Made by a program: the position numbers and the translations under genes
NCBI GenBank assembly: GCA_035545075.1
Contig: DASZZJ010000099.1
Span: 3,881-67,880 of the forward strand
Direction: 5' to 3'
Length of the DNA: 64,000 nucleotides
Origin: Candidatus Acidiferrales bacterium
Lineage (GTDB): Bacteria; Acidobacteriota; Terriglobia; Acidiferrales; UBA7541
Shown here: in pieces, positions 13,045 to 30,157 of the stretch
Layout of the letters: each line of letters starts with the position of its first letter
Position numbering within the stretch: position 1 is the first letter of the stretch
Notes under the pieces: model-generated
Databases searched by the model: none
Seen by the model: only the letters and a program-made list of their open reading frames with translations
Told to the model about the DNA's origin: nothing

Positions 13045-13131
13045 GCCCGAGTGGCGGAATTGGCAGACGCGCCAGCTTCAGGAGCTGGTTCTCGCAAGGG
13101 AGTGGAGGTTCGAGTCCTCTCTCGGGCACCA
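13045..13131 (+). tRNA. tRNA-Leu(CAG)
   Basis: Acceptor GCCCGAG/CTCGGGC + ACCA, D-loop GGAATTGGCAGAC, anticodon arm CCAGC-TTCAGGA-GCTGG, long variable arm, T-loop GGTTCGAGTCC. Confidence 0.97.
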
Positions 13132-17804: not shown

Positions 17805-18344
17805 TCAATGCACTGGAGCGCCGAAAGGACGAAGCACCGGCAAGAGGCGACGGAGCGGGTATGCAGCGCGGAACAGCATCCGCGCGCCAAGATCCCAAAT
17901 CCAGCTGTGCCGAGAGATGCCGGAAATGAGCCGTCCTAAGGCCAACTGGCGCGGTGAATCCAGATCAATGCGCTTTCCGCCCCGATAGATGCACGCGACG
18001 CGACCGAAGAGATCTTTTGCCGGCAAGAAGCCGTCGGCTTTCGGGTGAGCATCACCTTTGGCGACAAAACCGGGCGACCTTCCGCCGCGCTTCTCGATCA
18101 GGCGGTGGGCAAAGAGGCGCCCGCCCCGTTCAAAGAGGACAACGTCCCCGCAGCACGCTTCCTCCATGGCGGCAGAATGCACGAGGATCATGTCGCCGGG
18201 CCTGACCCACGGAAGCATGCTCGAGCCCTGGACGCGGATGCAGACGCAGCGGCGGCGACGAAGATCCTGGCGAATTCTCACCGTATCTCCTCGATGGCCC
18301 TCGCCAGTGAATTCCATTTCTTGCGTTTTTCGCTCCTCGTTCAC
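17805..18344 (-). CDS. S24/S26-family (signal-peptidase-like) peptidase without a membrane anchor
   Basis: VQGSSMLPWVRPGD (catalytic Ser), GDVVLF, AHRLI, AKGDA; start may be 18344 or 18317. Confidence 0.8.
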   Translation of the reverse strand: MNEERKTQEMEFTGEGHRGDTVRIRQDLRRRRCVCIRVQGSSMLPWVRPGDMILVHSAAMEEACCGDVVLFERGGRLFAHRLIEKRGGRSPGFVAKGDAHPKADGFLPAKDLFGRVACIYRGGKRIDLDSPRQLALGRLISGISRHSWIWDLGARMLFRAAYPLRRLLPVLRPFGAPVH

Positions 18345-18412
18345 AGCAGATTCGCCTCACGAACAGCCACTCGCCGAGCGGGTGAGTTCCTGACTGATTC
18401 AGGATGCAAACA

Positions 18413-18580
18413 CTAAGACTTCTTAACCCCGCCGCCGATACAGCGACCGCCTGCACCTGGGGTCTTGCCGCAGGCGAGCGCGAGGGTCTCGTAGATCGGC
18501 TCGGACTGGACGGCCGGCTTCGAGTAGGGCTTCTTCCCCGTGCCGGAATTGGGAGCCTTTGTTTCTTCGTCTGTAGGCAT
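18413..18580 (-). CDS. Putative RiPP precursor peptide, 55 aa: MPTDEETKAPNSGTGKKPYSKPAVQSEPIYETLALACGKTPGAGGRCIGGGVKKS
   Basis: Hand-translated; below the ORF-track length cutoff. GGAGG RBS 5 nt before ATG; 21 nt downstream of the rSAM stop; YxxP leader motif; Gly/Cys-rich C-terminus. Confidence 0.8.
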   Translation of the reverse strand: MPTDEETKAPNSGTGKKPYSKPAVQSEPIYETLALACGKTPGAGGRCIGGGVKKS

Positions 18581-18601
18581 TTCTTCCTCCCTGAAACTCA
18601 G

Positions 18602-19801
18602 TTAAATCGTGACCATAGCGTCTAACGGCATTTCTGCCGGAACCGGACGCCGCTCCGTACCCTGCTGGGCATGAAGCGCGCTCACAGGATTCGGCACACC
18701 GGCAATCCTTGCATTTTGTTCAGCCAGTTCGCATGCGCGTTCGTAGGCCCCGAGCAGGTCGCCCCCCTCCATAAAGGCCAAGCCGGGGCAGCGCTCGCAA
18801 TACTTGCGGATGGAGCAGGCGGAACACACCGGCAACTGGCTCTCGCGGATTGCCCGGACGCGCTCGAGGGCGGGCGCACCGGACCAAATTTCGGCGAAGC
18901 ATTCCCGGCGAAGATTCCCGGCAGATACGGGCAATTGCACGCAGGCATAGACGTCGCCGTAAGGCGAGACGTAGCAGCTATTGTGACCAGCGCTGCAGGG
19001 AAGATCGTCGTAGGCATCACTCTCGATGCCACTGGACACAGCGCTTCCCACCCCGGACGGCAGCGGAGGAGCATCCCCGGGCTGGGGCCGGCAGGAACGC
19101 AGGACGGGATCCCGGAGAATCGGCAGGAGTTGGGTCCCACTGGCGCGGTGCGCGAGGGTGCTTGCGTCGCCGTCAATCATTGGCGTGATGGTCATATCGA
19201 AAATGTAGGCGACGCCGAGCCGCTCCGCCAGAGCGAGGACCCCGCGGAAGGAAGAAAGATTTTCCGTCATCAGCGGGCAGGCGATCTTGACATGCAGGCC
19301 TTGCGCCTGCAGGAGCGGGATAGCCGCAAGCGATCGCTCGAGCGAGCCCCGGACCTTCGTGACGGCATCATGGATGGCCGGATCGTCCGAGTAGATGCTG
19401 ATTTGCACTCGGCGGACGCCGAGCTCGCGCAAGCGCGCGGCACGCTCCGCGGTGACGAGCAGGGCGTTCGTTTTCAGGCTGACATCGAAATGGAGCCGCC
19501 GCGCGGCACCGAGGATTTCAAAAAGGTCCGGGCGCAGAAAAATCTCTCCACCACTGAAGGTGAGAAAGAGCGTCCCCGCAGCGGCTAAATCTTCGAGCAC
19601 ACCGAGGATTTCCGGAGTGGTGAGCTCCCCGTAATCTCTGTGGTCGAGATAGCAATGCACGCAGCGCTCATTGCAGCGGTAGGTCAAATCGATATGGACG
19701 CTAAGCGGGCGCCGCTGCCGGACAGTGCGCGCGATCAGCCTGTCCATCATCGGCGTAGGACCCGAAGTCGAAGCGCGCGGTACTTGCGCCAAGGTGCTCA
19801 T
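18602..19801 (-). CDS. Radical SAM / SPASM-domain peptide maturase
   Basis: CNERCVHC (CxxxCxxC), FSGGEIF, SPASM cysteines CSAG..GDVYAC..CSACSIRKYCERCPG..AC; ATG overlaps the PqqD stop (ATGA). Confidence 0.92.
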   Translation of the reverse strand: MSTLAQVPRASTSGPTPMMDRLIARTVRQRRPLSVHIDLTYRCNERCVHCYLDHRDYGELTTPEILGVLEDLAAAGTLFLTFSGGEIFLRPDLFEILGAARRLHFDVSLKTNALLVTAERAARLRELGVRRVQISIYSDDPAIHDAVTKVRGSLERSLAAIPLLQAQGLHVKIACPLMTENLSSFRGVLALAERLGVAYIFDMTITPMIDGDASTLAHRASGTQLLPILRDPVLRSCRPQPGDAPPLPSGVGSAVSSGIESDAYDDLPCSAGHNSCYVSPYGDVYACVQLPVSAGNLRRECFAEIWSGAPALERVRAIRESQLPVCSACSIRKYCERCPGLAFMEGGDLLGAYERACELAEQNARIAGVPNPVSALHAQQGTERRPVPAEMPLDAMVTI

Positions 19802-20115
19802 CGATCTGCTGGTACTCCCGCCAGCCCCGCGTTCACGCCCGCCTGGAGGATCAACCGTAACGAGGCCAATTCCTGCAGAAGCGATTCCGTGTCCCGCAGC
19901 GCGGTCTCCGAAGAGACTTCGTACTCGGCAGAAAGAAGCGCGGCGATCTGAGCAGGGGTGTGCCGGCCGTCCAGAAGCTCCCAGACAAAACTTCCGGTGC
20001 CGTTCAACTCGTGCATGACGCTCTCGCCGGGCGAGATGATCACCGCCTCGCCGTCGATTTCTCGCCAGGCAAGCACGGGATTCCTCTGCCAGAGGGTGGG
20101 AGCGACGGCATTCAT
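19798..20115 (-). CDS. PqqD-family RiPP recognition element (RRE)
   Basis: REIDGEAVII..HELNGTGSFVWELLDG..IAALLSAEYEVS..DTESLLQEL; ATGA-coupled on both sides. Confidence 0.92.
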   Translation of the reverse strand: MNAVAPTLWQRNPVLAWREIDGEAVIISPGESVMHELNGTGSFVWELLDGRHTPAQIAALLSAEYEVSSETALRDTESLLQELASLRLILQAGVNAGLAGVPADR

Positions 20116-20906
20116 GCGGGTAGCGCCTCCCAGAGGCTGGCGTCGCGGCGGAATTCGAATCGGTAGCAAGGCACAGACTGCGCAAGCCTGGCAAGGAGGT
20201 CGAGGAGGCGCCGACTGGCCTCGGTGTCCTTGGAGAAAAAGAGTACGTTCGGCAGGAGCATGCGTACGGCATCGGCAGGACTCATGGGCAGGACGCGGTT
20301 GTGCGGGGCTTGCAAGAGCTGAAAAATGCCCGCGACCTTTGCGTGCACGCTCTTTCCATCGGCGTGAAATTCTCCCCAGAAAGGAGTGCCGAAAGCAGAC
20401 CACTCCGCGCTTTCCTGACGGAGGAGTGAGATTTCGTCGGTAAGAACAGTGCCTTCCGGAGCGAGGGATGCCAACGTACTCTTGCCAGCGCCCGAAGGCC
20501 CGGTAAAAACGAAGGCGCGGCCGCCGCGAACAATCGTGGCTGCATGCAGCAGGAAACCCTTTTGCGGGAGAAGGGTCCACGAGAGCAGGACGCGCAGAAG
20601 CGAATCCAGCGCGTACTCATTGCGCACACCGCTGAAGACCGCATCTTCGCGGCGGCAACGGAGTGTGGCGCCCTGCCATTTGAAGGAAAAGTCGGCCGAC
20701 GCGGACGCTGCCTCGCGGGCATCGAGAAGGCGAATGGGAAAAGCCGGGCCTTCCGCGGCCTCAAAGGCGCGATAGCGCTCCGCCGCGAGGCGGTGTAGGC
20801 CTTCGTCGGGAAAAAGGATCTGAAAACGCGTCGACCCGATGGACAAATCGAGCGACCACCCCAGTTCCCGCCCCAAAGTGGCATGCGCCGCCAAAGAATC
20901 CCTCAT
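20112..20906 (-). CDS. HPr-kinase-related P-loop protein
   Basis: GFLLHAA, Walker A GPSGAGKST, LTDE, GTPFWG; start at 20906 is inferred. Confidence 0.8.
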   Translation of the reverse strand: MRDSLAAHATLGRELGWSLDLSIGSTRFQILFPDEGLHRLAAERYRAFEAAEGPAFPIRLLDAREAASASADFSFKWQGATLRCRREDAVFSGVRNEYALDSLLRVLLSWTLLPQKGFLLHAATIVRGGRAFVFTGPSGAGKSTLASLAPEGTVLTDEISLLRQESAEWSAFGTPFWGEFHADGKSVHAKVAGIFQLLQAPHNRVLPMSPADAVRMLLPNVLFFSKDTEASRRLLDLLARLAQSVPCYRFEFRRDASLWEALPA

Positions 20907-21093
20907 TGGGCGCGAACGCTTGCAGGGACAGTGCCGCGCCGACGCCATCACGTTTCTTACAGAGAGAGAAGCTGCTCCATTTGAACTTGCCCAAGCGTCT
21001 CCCGTCAAGTCCAAAGAGGGAATGGTTCTCCAAAATGCAAAGCGCTGCGCAAGGAGGGATTTCCCCGCCGCGGCGGGCCTGTTCTTCCGCCGT

Positions 21094-21816: not shown

Positions 21817-21845
21817 ACTATACACGTTATAACGACTATTGTCAA
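21817..21845 (-). promoter_or_regulatory. Pirin promoter with a palindromic operator in the spacer
   Basis: TTGACA-17 bp-TATAGT; perfect palindrome CGTTATAACG at 21825-21834. Confidence 0.7.
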
Positions 21846-25227: not shown

Positions 25228-26241
25228 GTGAAAAAGAGAATTCGCGCCATCCAGTATGGCGCCGGACCCATCGGTGCCTCCATCGCCCGCCTGCTGCGGG
25301 AAAAACAGGCGGTGGAGATTTGCGGAGCGATTGACACGGACCCGGCAAAGGAAGGACGGGACCTCGGTGAAATCGCCGGGGCAGCGGACGCCCCGTGGGG
25401 GGTGAAGATCTCCGCGGATGCCAAGGAAGTGCTGGCGCAGGCTGTGGACGTGGTGATCCACTCGACCTCGTCGTCCCTGCCGAAGGTGATGGACCAGTTG
25501 CTGGCCTGCCTGGAAGCGGAGTCGTGCGTCGTCTCGACGTGCGAAGAGCTTTCTTATCCTTACCGCACCTATCCTGAGCTGGCGGCAAAGCTCGACGCCG
25601 CGGCGAAAGAGTGGGGCGTAGCGCTGGTGGGGACGGGGATCAACCCGGGGTTTGTGATGGACAAGCTGGTGGTCACGCTGGGGGCAGTGGCACAGCGGAT
25701 CGAGCACGCGCGCGCGGTGCGAATCGTGGACGCAGCGAAGCGGCGGCTGCCGCTGCAGAAAAAAATCGGCGCGGGGATGAACGTGGATGAGTTCCGCGCG
25801 CAAGTGGCGGCGGGGGTCATCAAGCACGTGGGCCTGCCGGAGTCGGTGGCGATGGTCGCGGACAGCCTGGGGCTGCCGATAGACCAGATTACGGAGACGA
25901 TCGAGCCGGTGGTCGCACCGGAACGCGTGCAGACGGAATTTTTGACGGTGGAAGCCGGACAGGCCGCCGGTGTGCACCAGATTGCGCGGGGTACGGCGGG
26001 CGGAAAAGAACTCGTCCATCTCGAGTTGCTGATGTATGTGGGCGCAAAGGACCCAGGGGACACCATCGAGTTGACGGGCCATCCGAATATCCGCCTGGTG
26101 ATCCCCGGCGGGGCGCACGGAGACATCGCCACGGCAGCGGTGGTGGTCAACACGATACCCGCGATTCTGGACGCTCCGGCGGGGCTGCGGACGTCGCGGG
26201 ACCTGCCCATCGGGTTTTTCGCGCCAGGGGCAAGGCCGTAG
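25228..26241 (+). CDS. DapB-like NAD(P)-dependent oxidoreductase (2,4-diaminopentanoate / amine dehydrogenase family)
   Basis: YGAGPIG Rossmann motif, VSTCEEL, GTGINPGFVMD, GDIATAA..N..P..APAGL. Confidence 0.8.
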   Translation: MKKRIRAIQYGAGPIGASIARLLREKQAVEICGAIDTDPAKEGRDLGEIAGAADAPWGVKISADAKEVLAQAVDVVIHSTSSSLPKVMDQLLACLEAESCVVSTCEELSYPYRTYPELAAKLDAAAKEWGVALVGTGINPGFVMDKLVVTLGAVAQRIEHARAVRIVDAAKRRLPLQKKIGAGMNVDEFRAQVAAGVIKHVGLPESVAMVADSLGLPIDQITETIEPVVAPERVQTEFLTVEAGQAAGVHQIARGTAGGKELVHLELLMYVGAKDPGDTIELTGHPNIRLVIPGGAHGDIATAAVVVNTIPAILDAPAGLRTSRDLPIGFFAPGARP

Positions 26242-26350
26242 CCGCCTGCGGCGGGCAGGCCCGCCCTTCGCCAGAACTGTGGCGGGCAAGCCCTCGTCGC
26301 GTAGGCTGCGGCGCGGCTCCTCTCGGGCCGCAGGGGTAACAAGGAAGGTA

Positions 26351-26446
26351 CTCCCCCTCCCCCCTGTTTTTTGTAAGTGTTGATTGTAAAGGAGTTGAAA
26401 GCCTTTGTTTTGATACACTTTTACAAGTGTTGATTCTAAGGAACTT
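26351..26446. repeat. AT-rich element with two 25-bp direct repeats (IHF-site-like)
   Basis: TGTAAGTGTTGATTGTAAAGGAGTT (26372) and TACAAGTGTTGATTCTAAGGAACTT (26422), 50-bp period, preceded by a C-run. Confidence 0.7.
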
Positions 26447-26654
26447 AGGAGAGCGCAAAGTGGTGAAGCAGAAGAAGCCTGAGGTAACGAGCGGGAGGCC
26501 TACAGCGACCTGGGACGTCAAACTCACAAACTATGTTACCACAGGTGTACTATAATTGTCAAGGAATAATTGTAAGCGATTGGCGGGAAACGGCTTTCTA
26601 GATGTCAGAGATCGGAGGCTGAGTATATTCCCGCCCACTCAAAGGGGGTGAAGA

Positions 26655-26903
26655 ATGGAACCAAGAGTTACAATTGCCGCTACTGTAGTGATTTCTTTGA
26701 TATTCGGGGGCGCAACGCTCGGAGTGTTCTTGACCAAAATCGAAGGATTCGGAAAGTATACGACAAGCGTGCTGGTACTGATCCTAGCCCTGTTTGTAGG
26801 TAGTCTCGCTCTTGCCATCGGCAAGATTGAAGCTCAACCGTTCGTGAGCCTACTATTTGCCGTCGTTGGTTACGCTGGCGGTCTAATTAGTAAGAAAGAT
26901 TAG
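26655..26903 (+). CDS. Small three-TM membrane protein
   Basis: 82 aa, three hydrophobic segments, purine-rich RBS, atypical AT-richer codons. Confidence 0.65.
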   Translation: MEPRVTIAATVVISLIFGGATLGVFLTKIEGFGKYTTSVLVLILALFVGSLALAIGKIEAQPFVSLLFAVVGYAGGLISKKD

Positions 26904-27000
26904 GCTGCCGCTCTGGCAGATTGATAAGCTGGTTGCGAAACTGCTTTGATCCATCGCTGAGCACGGATTGCCTGAAGCCTCGAATTGACGTGGGTAAATT

Positions 27001-28164
27001 ATGAGCCGATCCGTACAGATTCGAGTCCACCCCCTGGTACTTAAGTGGGCGCGGGAAAGCTCAGGCGCAACGGTCGAGGATGCTGCCAAACGCGCCAAGG
27101 TGCCTTCGGGCATCTTCGCAAAGTGGGAGAACAAAGGAACCGCACTCAGCCTGACGCAGGCCAGGGGGCTGGCTGCTTACTTTAGGAGGCCACTGGCCGC
27201 GTTTCTTCTTTCCGAGCCGCCTCCCGAACCACCTATGCCGCGAGACTTTCGCACTCTTCCCCACGCTAAGGATCGCTTCGAGCGCGATACCCGCTTTGCC
27301 ATCCGGAAGGCGCGGCGGCTGCAAACGGTGGCTGGGGAGCTCATGCAGTCCTTGGAGCGCGACACCTCCCCTCCCTTTGAGGGGGCCAAAGTCTCGGACG
27401 ACCCCGCAGCTGTGGCGAGCCGAGAGAGGGATCGGCTGGGAGTAAGCCTTGACCAGCAGCAGGACTGGCAGAATGAGTGGGAAGCCTTCCGCGAATGGCG
27501 CGCCGCTATCGAGCGTCAAAACATCCTGACCCTCCAGTTACCCATCACGGTCGAGGATGTGCGCGGGTTTTCCTTAGGTGACCAGAAACCATATGTGATC
27601 ACGGTGAGCTCATCAGATGCGGTTCGCGCACGCATCTTCACGCTGTTCCATGAATACAGCCATCTTCTCCTTCACAATGCGGGGATCTGTGCCCCAAGGT
27701 TCGAGGCTAACGGTCAGAGACAAGAATTCGAGGTCGAGCAGTGGTGCAACCGCTTTGCCGGTGAGTTTCTTGTTCCGAGATCGGCACTTGAACTTGCGTT
27801 ACCAGGACGAGCCCAACTTGAAACCCAGGCACTTGCTGATGCATTAGCGGCGGGGGCCAAGACGTTCAAGGTCAGCGAAGCGGTCATGCTGTTTAGGTTG
27901 TTGCATGTGGGCCGCGTGTCGAAGACAACGTTTCGGCACACTCTTGCACAACTAGAGGTCGGAGCGCGTCGGGCCAAACATAAGGGCGGCCCCGTTCGCC
28001 CCGCAAGAAAGTGTCTCGCCGAAAACGGCGTCCTCTTTTCCTCTTTGGTTTTGGAGGCGAGAAACCGGGGCGCCATAACCCACGCCGACGTTAGCGACTT
28101 CTTGAGCGTGCGCCTGAAGCACTTACCCGAGATTGAATCGTCATTGATGGCACGCGCGGCATGA
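27001..28164 (+). CDS. XRE-HTH + ImmA/IrrE (peptidase M78) metalloprotease
   Basis: N-terminal HTH (LKWARESSG..KWE), DFR, FTLFHEYSH (HExxH), EQWCNRFAGEFLVP. Confidence 0.9.
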   Translation: MSRSVQIRVHPLVLKWARESSGATVEDAAKRAKVPSGIFAKWENKGTALSLTQARGLAAYFRRPLAAFLLSEPPPEPPMPRDFRTLPHAKDRFERDTRFAIRKARRLQTVAGELMQSLERDTSPPFEGAKVSDDPAAVASRERDRLGVSLDQQQDWQNEWEAFREWRAAIERQNILTLQLPITVEDVRGFSLGDQKPYVITVSSSDAVRARIFTLFHEYSHLLLHNAGICAPRFEANGQRQEFEVEQWCNRFAGEFLVPRSALELALPGRAQLETQALADALAAGAKTFKVSEAVMLFRLLHVGRVSKTTFRHTLAQLEVGARRAKHKGGPVRPARKCLAENGVLFSSLVLEARNRGAITHADVSDFLSVRLKHLPEIESSLMARAA

Positions 28165-28170
28165 GACTTC

Positions 28171-28659
28171 ATGGCCGATGACATATACTGCATCGACGCG
28201 AGCTCCCTGATCAAGTTGAAACAGGATTTTCGGCGGAACGTTTTCACATCGCTGTGGGACAAGCTAGAAAAGTTAATTCAAGAAGGCAGGTTGATTGCTG
28301 CAAATGAAGTGTTGGAGGAGATCAAGAAGGACGACATCCTTGGTCCATGGGCCAGGAAGAACAAGAAGGTTTTCAGAAAACTAGACCAGAAGCAAGTGGA
28401 GCTGGCGGCCGAGGTTGCAGGCAAATTCCCGGAGCTGGCGAAGCCAGGGCGGTTCGGCCCTGCAGCTGACACCTTTGTCGTCGCACTCGCGCGTGTACAA
28501 GACCAAGAGTTGGCCGGTTCGCTGCTCTCGCCGCAGTCTCGATGCGTGCTCGTGACTGAAGAGCGCGGCCCAAACAAGATACCTGGCGCTTGCAAACACT
28601 ACGCTGTGACCTGTGTGAACATCGTTGATCTATTTGAGCGCGAGGGTTGGAAATTCTAG
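28171..28659 (+). CDS. PIN-fold protein (DUF4411-like)
   Basis: YCIDASSLI, FTSLWDKL, EVLEEI, ADTFVVALA, LVTEE, KIPGACKHY. Confidence 0.85.
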   Translation: MADDIYCIDASSLIKLKQDFRRNVFTSLWDKLEKLIQEGRLIAANEVLEEIKKDDILGPWARKNKKVFRKLDQKQVELAAEVAGKFPELAKPGRFGPAADTFVVALARVQDQELAGSLLSPQSRCVLVTEERGPNKIPGACKHYAVTCVNIVDLFEREGWKF

Positions 28660-28723
28660 GATGCTGGTTGAGGCAGTGACCGGAACCGCTTGGGACATGG
28701 GCGGATCAGTGGGAAGGAACCTG

Positions 28724-29210
28724 AAGAGAGGTTCCTCGCTGCGCTCGGTCCCCGGTAGGCCCATCGGGGCGGGCCCTCAGAACCGTCCGGGATGCCCCGA
28801 ACGGTCGGGGTAGACGCCAGGCGCAAATGAAGTGTTTTCCTCGAGGCACGGAATCCATTATTGGCTCTGCTCATCACAAGAGACTCAAGTGCCGCACCTC
28901 CGGCGCTGGCGATTCTCCCCGCTATTATTCCCAGCCCTCATGGGCTGGGCTATCCTCTGGCGCGCCCTCCGGGGGCTACACAGAAACGAAGATGCCCTGT
29001 ACGATGCGGGGCGCTCGGGCTATAAGAGCAAAGCGGCGTCGAGCCGCCGCACTCCAAAATTATATCTTCCAGAATTACATGACGGCGGCGTGGGGCCCCG
29101 CAGATTCGTCCGGGACGCAAACGGCGCGCTCCGCTCAGGGCAAGCCGTTCGCCAGCAAAGAGGGTGGTACCCAGCAACGACCTTGCGCTGGGGGATTCGC
29201 CACCCTCCCG
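28724..29210. repeat. Cluster of REP-like palindromic elements
   Basis: GTTCCTCGCTGCGCTCGG..AATGA, CCCCGAACGGTCGGGG, CCCAGCCCTCATGGGCTGGG, GCGGCGTCGAGCCGCCGC; units shared with 30192-30343 and 50981-51062. Confidence 0.7.
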
Positions 29211-29260
29211 TATTAGGCGTACAATTGCTGCCGTTCTTGAAGTCAAAAAGGAGATTCCGG

Positions 29261-30157
29261 ATGAGACATCGAAGATTGGGCCTTTTCGGTCTCTTACTAC
29301 TCCTTGCCGGTCCCTGCGCCGCGCAAACGGCCAACCGCGTCACGATCCTGTACGACGCGTTTGGAAAAACGGAGACGCTGACCAAGGATTGGGGCTTTTC
29401 CGCTTTGATTGAATCTGGCGGAAAACGCATCCTTTTCGATACCGGAAATAGCGCGCAGATTTTCGAACACAACGTCAAAGCGCTAGGTGTGGACCTCGGA
29501 AACCTGGATTTCGTGGTGATCTCGCATCGCCACGCCGACCACACGAGCGGTCTCACCTACCTGCTGAGCGTCAACCCGACGGTGAAGATCTACACGCCAG
29601 ACGAACCGTTCGGGCTCTTCGGGAAGGGAGTTCCCAACACTTTTTATCGCAAGGACCAATCCTTAGCGGCGGGCATGCGCTATTTCGATGGGAACCCGCC
29701 ACAGGTGTTGTCGGCCGGGAGTCCCTGGCCAAAGGCGAACTTTGTGCCGGTGACCTCCGTGATGGAAGTCGCGCCGGGTTTTTTTCTGATCCCGACCATT
29801 TCACAGGTGACAGGGACAATCGAGCTGCGCGAGGTTTCCTTGGCGATTCGCAGCCCGGACGGGCTGATTCTGGTGGATGGCTGTTCCCATGCGGGGGTGG
29901 AAAAAATCCTCGAGGCAGTGACGAAAATAGACACGCACATTCATGTGCTGTTTGGAGGGCTGCATCTGGTACAAGCTCCTGACCCGGAAATCGAGCGTAT
30001 TTCCAGCGCTCTGCGAAACCAGTGGAAAATCGATTACATCGCAATCGGGCATTGCACGGGCGAGCCGACATTTGTAGCGCTTCAAAAAACGTTTGGTGAT
30101 CGCTACATTTACGCAGGCGTTGGGACCGTAGTGCAGATTCCTTCTAGCAGTCGTTAA
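29261..30157 (+). CDS. Secreted MBL-fold metallo-hydrolase
   Basis: AAGGAG RBS, signal peptide, ILFDTG, SHRHADHTSG (HxHxDH), GCSH, GGLHL, GHCTG. Confidence 0.88.
   Translation: MRHRRLGLFGLLLLLAGPCAAQTANRVTILYDAFGKTETLTKDWGFSALIESGGKRILFDTGNSAQIFEHNVKALGVDLGNLDFVVISHRHADHTSGLTYLLSVNPTVKIYTPDEPFGLFGKGVPNTFYRKDQSLAAGMRYFDGNPPQVLSAGSPWPKANFVPVTSVMEVAPGFFLIPTISQVTGTIELREVSLAIRSPDGLILVDGCSHAGVEKILEAVTKIDTHIHVLFGGLHLVQAPDPEIERISSALRNQWKIDYIAIGHCTGEPTFVALQKTFGDRYIYAGVGTVVQIPSSSR

Follow-up and report, generated by a model that had tools for sequence, protein, structure and literature searches.

What peptide do five small co-oriented genes make, how is it modified and what does it serve? The question is raised by a locus in a 64,000-nucleotide stretch of DNA from Candidatus Acidiferrales bacterium (assembly GCA_035545075.1, contig DASZZJ010000099.1, positions 3,881 to 67,880 of the forward strand), which was analysed whole and is called the window here. 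Its source genome (G000; assembly of 1.63 Mb, 77% complete) is grouped with soil Acidobacteriota by its relatives in locus and genome comparisons. The block at 17805..20936 had been proposed to encode a pathway for a peptide made on ribosomes and modified after its translation (RiPP), guided by a RiPP recognition element (RRE) and comprising a hidden precursor, an HprK-like kinase, a radical S-adenosylmethionine (rSAM)/SPASM enzyme and a leader peptidase, and both gene families and conservation agree with that proposal. The five genes are real, travel together and form a RiPP-type pathway with an uncharacterised product. On balance, and with restrained confidence, we favour as the predicted product a 23-residue peptide that is cyclised by a thioether, carries a C-terminal phosphoserine, is capped and exported, and is the partner of secreted beta-propeller proteins. 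The features of the locus are as follows.

20112..20894, minus strand: HprK-like peptide kinase (TIGR04352, E 9e-10, below cut-off; start from ribosome-binding site and homologue alignment)
19798..20115, minus strand: stand-alone RRE of the PqqD family, 105 residues (PF05402, E 3e-21)
18602..19801, minus strand: radical SAM/SPASM maturase, 399 residues, with CxxxCxxC and seven SPASM cysteines (Pfam Radical_SAM and SPASM)
18586..18590, minus strand: Shine-Dalgarno GGAGG of the precursor (sequence)
18413..18580, minus strand: precursor peptide, 55 residues (homologous loci, profile search, silent-site divergence)
18509..18526, minus strand: predicted RRE-binding motif Y19-x-x-P22-x-V24 (precursor alignment; motif bound by LppB, available sections of PMC13381572)
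18416..18484, minus strand: predicted core, residues 33-55 (cut after Thr32 inferred from LppA)
17805..18344, minus strand: SipW/LppS-like S26 leader peptidase with no transmembrane helix (TIGR02228, E 1e-11; conserved Ser/His/Asp)
21817..21845, minus strand: promoter-like TTGACA-17-TATAGT upstream of pirin (1 site found versus 0.5 expected from shuffles)

The original prediction described this layout well. All five open reading frames were found on the minus strand, the ATGA overlaps joining the first three genes can be read directly at 20115-20112 and 19801-19798, and the 55-residue frame (18580-18413) has its strong ribosome-binding site, GGAGG at 18590-18586. The block is flanked by a convergent rnr (TIGR02063, above cut-off) on one side and by pirin (Pfam) on the other, and the peptidase is soluble as described, with no 19-residue hydrophobic stretch and a maximum Kyte-Doolittle value of 1.3. 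The extent of the block stands as well, except that no start codon lies at 20936, taken as the kinase boundary: for the kinase the most likely start is TTG 20894, which has GAGG ahead of it and is in register with the homologues (alternatives are ATG 20906 and ATG 20948), and for the peptidase it is GTG 18344. The rSAM-precursor-peptidase junction is not an assembly artefact, because a contig from a second study (X5 record 16) spans the rSAM end, the precursor and the peptidase at ~95% identity. The X5 strain has three bases fewer at window positions 18422-18432, near the 3' end of the precursor gene, which would give the 22-residue core usual in the family.

Homologous loci were fetched by the rSAM alone, and the best 80 of at least 532 confirmed stretches were compared with 7-kb flanks. 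The short open reading frame expected beside homologous rSAM genes is present as a precursor in 73 of the 80, along with the kinase in 78, the RRE in 78 and the peptidase in 71; the whole five-gene set, whose co-occurrence had been put forward as a check, is found in 66, in several gene orders. Many of the absences occur where a contig ends or concern genes outside the 7-kb flank, and the precursor was not detectable in four long loci (L030, L057, L067 and L080). In L058 (6623-8062), and possibly in L059, RRE and rSAM lie in a single open frame, by fusion or overlap. A precursor profile collected 6,228 clusters (90% identity) at E<=1e-3, the best 120 of them unnamed or hypothetical, and the precursor occurs in 27 of 180 genomes drawn from the class, each at least 90% complete. 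When 63 precursors were compared with that of the window, silent differences were found at 598 of 1,153 codons with unchanged residues, and this silent-site divergence indicates that the frame is selected as a protein. A plasmid search returned only rSAMs of ~30% identity. In the open literature we found no study of this peptide family or its product, in a search that left subscription journals mostly uncovered and did not extend to the supplementary rSAM list of PMC10288494, which may name members.

The cassette co-occurs with secreted propeller proteins. One of two distantly related secreted families, BP6 (25 loci) or BP8 (20 loci), is encoded in 45 of the 80 loci. BP6, which travels with a small lipoprotein-like gene, combines a DNRLRE/CBM96 domain with an eight-bladed BamB-like propeller (predicted template modelling score of the model 0.73); BP8, a family without a name, has a predicted fold similar to that of PQQ_2 propellers, and its AlphaFold model was poor (predicted local distance difference score 53) and was not used. 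Among 60 relatives, BP6 or BP8 is present in all 15 cassette genomes and in none of the 45 others, and in the class draw it is present in 25 of 27 precursor genomes versus 1 of 153 others, the single case being a fragment at a contig end; one more genome, with a match to DNRLRE only, was left uncounted. An adjacent copy is missing at 35 loci; 28 of their genomes were tested, and 25 of these carry a propeller outside the locus whose type matches the rSAM clade, these orphan copies having no precursor beside them. At L118 (G167:C9:1-20000) eight divergent BP8 genes stand in tandem, with six copies of the precursor and fragments of the peptidase between them, and the tandem propeller-precursor units of this genome combine an identical core with divergent propellers. 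A one-to-one specificity of peptide and propeller is ruled out by these identical cores beside divergent propellers. The peptide thus likely serves secreted surface proteins. As the last, sixth step of the pathway that we propose, a single constant peptide might be the common ligand, assembly factor or signal for a range of variable secreted proteins.

How such a peptide would be made can be read in part from the precursor. Its plan is a variable N-terminus, a leader YxxPxV...YET and a core xALxCxK...C...S. Tyr19 and Pro22 are invariant in the alignment, and [FY][EV][TV] follows 14 residues after the leader tyrosine in 73 of 74 precursors. Among 58 distinct cores, Ala2, Cys5 and Lys7 are each present in all, position 3 is Leu in 57 and Ile in one, a second cysteine lies downstream, and the terminal residue is Ser in 56. 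In a wider set of 94 distinct precursors, gathered with a pattern that forced Ala/Gly at core position 2 and Cys at position 5, Lys7 is found in 91 and the C-terminal Ser in 90, distant Acidobacteriota included; of the four others, two are truncated by the end of a contig and two read through. Between the cysteines lies a loop that varies from 6 to 57 residues. Two short variants keep a single cysteine and the terminal Ser, and in them, too, the spacing from leader to A-L-x-C is fixed. The core of the window has 23 residues (2100.13 Da unmodified) with Cys37, Lys39, Cys47 and the C-terminal Ser55. A lipoprotein reading of its 'LALAC' is ruled out by the lack of a hydrophobic signal stretch.

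The handling of the leader resembles that in the linear polyphosphorylated peptide (LPP) pathway (Popov et al. 2026, PMC13381572, cited throughout from its available sections), in which LppB binds YxxP via N33 and D70, LppS (S29/H68/D93) cleaves after FET with assistance of the RRE, and LppK phosphorylates core Ser3. The best PDB match of the RRE is LppB (9x8z, E 7e-8), and its N38 (76/77) and D75 (74/77) align with the two binding residues. The peptidase (Peptidase_S24 E 1e-8; archaeal-type signal peptidase TIGR02228 44.6 bits versus a cut-off of 51.85) has S42 in 71/71, H80 in 71/71 and D104 in 66/71 (Glu in 4), which we paired by eye with the LppS triad; no useful match came from PDB searches with the precursor, the kinase or the peptidase. 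By analogy, and with good agreement of motifs and residues, the RRE would bind Y19xxP22 (step 1) and the peptidase, with its help, would likely cut after Thr32 (step 4). Both systems share a YxxP...[FY]ET leader, a discrete RRE retaining Asn and Asp, a SipW-like S26 leader peptidase with a Ser/His/Asp triad, an HprK-like kinase, NTP_transf_5 (in trans here), an exporter and a tie to surface or polysaccharide loci. They differ in the leader, which is two residues shorter here (spacing 14 versus 16), in core position 3 (Leu in 57/58 versus the phosphorylated Ser), in the invariant cysteine pair and C-terminal Ser, in the RRE-coupled rSAM/SPASM gene, of predicted activity, added to what in LPP yields a linear product, in the exporter (ABC-2 in trans versus MsbA-like) and in host (Acidobacteriota versus Bacillota). 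The available main text of PMC13381572 leaves radical SAM enzymes and Acidobacteria unmentioned, and its table has acidobacterial peptidases with the precursor given as 'ND'. On sequence comparison, LPP is the closest characterised system, and the cassette appears to work like it without being an LPP, because its core has no Ser3 and its gene set includes a radical SAM enzyme as an addition. The product, which the original prediction could not assign to a characterised class, is uncharacterised, with LPP as its nearest neighbour.

For the kinase, paeninodin-type lasso pathways appear to explain the target better than LPP does. In those, HprK-like kinases with His-Lys-Asp-Asp phosphorylate a Ser at the C-terminus before the precursor is cut, and hexose addition in the pseudomycoidin pathway requires PsmN (available parts of PMC9266682 and PMC6993621). 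Here H131 (79/79), K152 (78/79, one gap), D167 (79/79) and E168 (79/79; P0002 numbering) are conserved, and distant members have SDD, that is, Asp-Asp. Since the C-terminal Ser is invariant, and in 14 of 58 cores the sole Ser/Thr/Tyr, the kinase likely phosphorylates Ser55 while the precursor is still uncut, like PadeK, ThcoK and PsmK (step 3), a proposal for which the analogy is good. The likeness extends to a YxxP-type leader, an RRE and a nucleotidyltransferase, and the difference lies in the serine peptidase and rSAM found here and in a window core without Asp/Glu. No macrolactam cyclase or B2 protease lies in the cassette, and the B2 protease PF13471 was not found in the 77%-complete genome, which has one full-length Asn_synthase match on another contig.

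The chemistry of the rSAM (step 2) is the weakest step. Its SPASM cysteines 269, 287, 326, 329, 335, 338 and 357 are invariant (77/77), and their spacing matches the 3+4 scheme (three-Cys AuxI, four-Cys AuxII) of CteB/PapB, enzymes with an open site in the first auxiliary cluster (available part of PMC10177961); distant members have exactly seven. An eighth, C276, is present in 67/77, replaced in 10/77 and absent in several distant members. Aromatic cross-links are unlikely because 57 of 58 cores lack Trp/Tyr, and this absence together with the CteB/PapB spacing makes a cysteine thioether our first choice. The rSAM would likely join Cys37, perhaps Cys47, via sulfur to an unactivated carbon, possibly of Ala34 in the invariant A-x-x-C, by analogy with NxxcB, which makes an x-x-x-C beta-thioether and tolerates Ala (available part of PMC9389541). 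Ranthipeptide and sactipeptide systems (CteB, PapB, NxxcB, SkfB, StsB) are alike in their RRE-dependent rSAM/SPASM, 3+4 cysteine pattern (with C276 as an eighth in 67/77 here) and cysteine-bearing core, and SkfB is the top PDB match, whereas the rSAM here scores under every curated cut-off. Neither a kinase nor an S26 peptidase is known to be part of those pathways. PMC13692751, in its available part, concerns another system.

Two further activities are encoded elsewhere, and the original description of the pathway as minimal and complete is not supported. The absence of an exporter holds for the cassette, but contig C95 of the source genome (8732-11792, L138) carries an NTP_transf_5 gene arranged divergently with genes for an ABC-2 ATPase and permease, a layout that is also found directly next to the cassette in L054, L055, L060 and others. 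NTP_transf_5 is found in 38 of the 80 loci and in 27 of 27 precursor genomes of the class draw, and an ABC-2 membrane gene in 13 of 80. The C95 group is likely a detached remainder of the cassette, whose nucleotidyltransferase might cap the phosphate with a nucleotide or sugar (compare PsmN) and whose adjoining ABC-2 pair might export the product (step 5).

Several observations count against the favoured product, the first of them concerning its chemistry. Under the landmark rule of PMC10288494 (available part), the six active-site residues are Y-S-K-S-V-Q in 72/77, unlike F-F-T-S-H-Q of CteB and Y-T-I-S-K-L of StsB, the two profiles compared; C276 could occupy the open cluster site; and the best NCBIfam match, of models none of which scores above its cut-off, is the decarboxylase AhbD (144 bits versus 500). 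The rSAM may thus perform chemistry other than thioether formation. In addition, the kinase has Asp-Glu and not Asp-Asp, the core start A-L-A-C is also compatible with a signal-peptidase A-x-A cut before Cys37, NTP_transf_5 also occurs in 31 of 153 class-draw genomes without the precursor, and LppN was inactive, without visible effect, in the available LPP data (PMC13381572).

The same pathway could instead have the rSAM act C-terminally, forming a Cys47-Ser55 ring or oxidatively decarboxylating the phosphoserine, with the cysteines otherwise in a disulfide after export, an arrangement that we consider unlikely but a serious rival. The AhbD match speaks for it, as do the last cysteine, whose distance to the terminal Ser is 6-9 residues in 87 of the 90 precursors that are complete, independent of loop length, and also in the two one-Cys variants, and the invariant Lys110, which by the landmark rule (PMC10288494, available part) faces the active site. 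Yet the AhbD score is far under its cut-off, the SPASM cysteine scheme fits thioether enzymes, and the short variants keep A-L-x-C at its fixed leader distance.

The partnership with propellers has its own weak points. Of the 45 adjacent copies, 35 are no more than 400 nt away from the precursor, so that linkage explains much of the co-occurrence, and related genomes are not independent in the counts, so that a Fisher test (p 3e-27) is overstated and was not relied on. A search of the 77%-complete source genome yielded no propeller, and G129 (98% complete, same chromosomal site) carries the cassette without a propeller even at E 1e-4. Because a quick tree nests the window's rSAM among loci that carry BP6 and share its rnr site, its cassette is likely a reduced form; no remnant of a propeller or lipoprotein gene was detectable between precursor and peptidase (best E 0.016-0.06). 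A predicted complex of the BP6 propeller domain with the unmodified L012 precursor (score 0.03) gave no answer.

The slot of the propellers can be filled by other cargo. PEP-CTERM proteins lie between a one-Cys short precursor and the peptidase in L132 (6907-7635), which adjoins polysaccharide genes, and in L121 (17747-18511), and a secreted S9 peptidase (Dpp5/lasso isopeptidase-like, below cut-offs) occupies the slot in L026 (8501-10552). Six to twelve precursor copies per genome with Gly-rich cores of 68-71 residues, flanked by the same leader and a C-x7/8-Ser end, stand beside B12 radical SAM genes in L151-L153 (G298), G266 and G283, possibly a hypermodified subfamily. A sister cassette in the same genus (L112-L117, for example L115 1110-11999; L136) has an RRE, an rSAM ~30% identical, a kinase and a precursor with P-x-E-A-V-L-G-H-C-K, three cysteines and a terminal Ser (Thr in L136), in which the same E-[TA] register likewise gives Cys at core position 5; its S26 peptidase is fused to a secreted DUF11/C25 protein of 2,300-2,800+ residues. 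In more distant cassettes (L154, L157-L160, L162, L164, L165, L167, L168) short precursors are directly followed by secreted proteins of 1,200-1,500 residues, and the six scanned are all gingipain-like C25.

This diversity bears on a second rival, an ordinary diffusible signal or antimicrobial with the propellers as co-transferred, co-regulated passengers, which we rate as improbable to about the same degree as the C-terminal chemistry. Most propellers are adjacent, G129 and the source genome have none, PEP-CTERM, S9 peptidase and B12 radical SAM cargo shares the slot, and HD-GYP genes flank 17 of the 80 loci. Mere passengers are harder to reconcile with unlinked propellers that are common yet almost never kept without the cassette, and with the recurrence of the theme with unrelated secreted proteins, including the peptidase fused to a giant DUF11/C25 protein. 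We think it very improbable that a disulfide loop C-x-K...C acts as a protease-inhibitor loop, in the manner of Bowman-Birk loops, controlling neighbouring secreted C25 proteases: Lys7 and the C25 proteins directly after distant cassettes would fit, but propellers of this subfamily lack a protease domain and the rSAM, kinase and nucleotidyltransferase would be left unexplained.

Other known systems are more remote. The SynChlorMet, GeoRSP and HprK-rel-A/B TIGRFAM cassettes share the neighbourhood of PqqD, an HprK-related protein and rSAM/SPASM, and the original prediction had compared the locus with SynChlorMet and HPr-rel; that comparison fails at the curated cut-offs (bits/cut-off: ScmC 32.5/125, ScmD 33.9/100, ScmE 92/400, ScmF 69.5/400, GeoRSP 112/400, HprK-rel-A, TIGR04352, 38/200), and LPP is nearer. 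SynChlorMet gene content includes two rSAM genes, and here there is one. PQQ and mycofactocin likewise combine an RRE, an rSAM/SPASM and a peptidase and have scattered client genes confined to producer genomes, the clients here being PQQ_2-type eight-bladed propellers. The cassette differs from them in that the propellers here are highly variable and carry carbohydrate-binding modules, with BamB-like folds and not quinoprotein dehydrogenases among the matches listed; the 23-residue core with its variable loop stands against a two-residue core and lacks the Glu or Tyr of PqqA Glu-x-x-x-Tyr, and the PqqE model scores 97.8/381 bits. No PqqB or PqqC lies in the cassette, a genome-wide search not having been made.

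As to its setting, the cassette may be transcribed by read-through from the promoter-like site upstream of pirin, no minus-strand terminator-like site being listed between pirin and the kinase. Among the sequencing runs listed as containing the locus, none was of RNA. A tRNA-Leu(CAG) lies at 13045-13131, ~4.7 kb from the cassette, with no sign of being an insertion site. The GC content falls to 0.55-0.59 at 26000-30000, versus 0.60-0.66 around the cassette, which is itself host-like.

The cassette belongs to an uncharacterised RiPP family that is very common in dominant soil bacteria. What is new here is the link between it and secreted eight-bladed propeller proteins that are often unlinked in the genome, and this near-exclusive pairing offers a clue to what phosphorylated RRE-guided peptides do biologically, a question left open by the LPP authors in the available part of their study. 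The active-site profile of the rSAM is unlike those of the enzymes with which it was compared, so its chemistry may be new, and the residue-level predictions for the product are within reach of one E. coli co-expression. We also entertain, as a doubtful extension, a cell-surface assembly pathway, formed by the systems of RRE, kinase, S26 peptidase and nucleotidyltransferase with or without an rSAM, in which the cross-linked peptide, its phosphoserine tail coupled to a nucleotide or sugar, would act as the common anchor, subunit or cofactor of secreted proteins that can replace one another (propellers here, C25/DUF11 giants and PEP-CTERM proteins in sister cassettes); if true, this would suggest a structural function for LPPs and paeninodin-type peptides.

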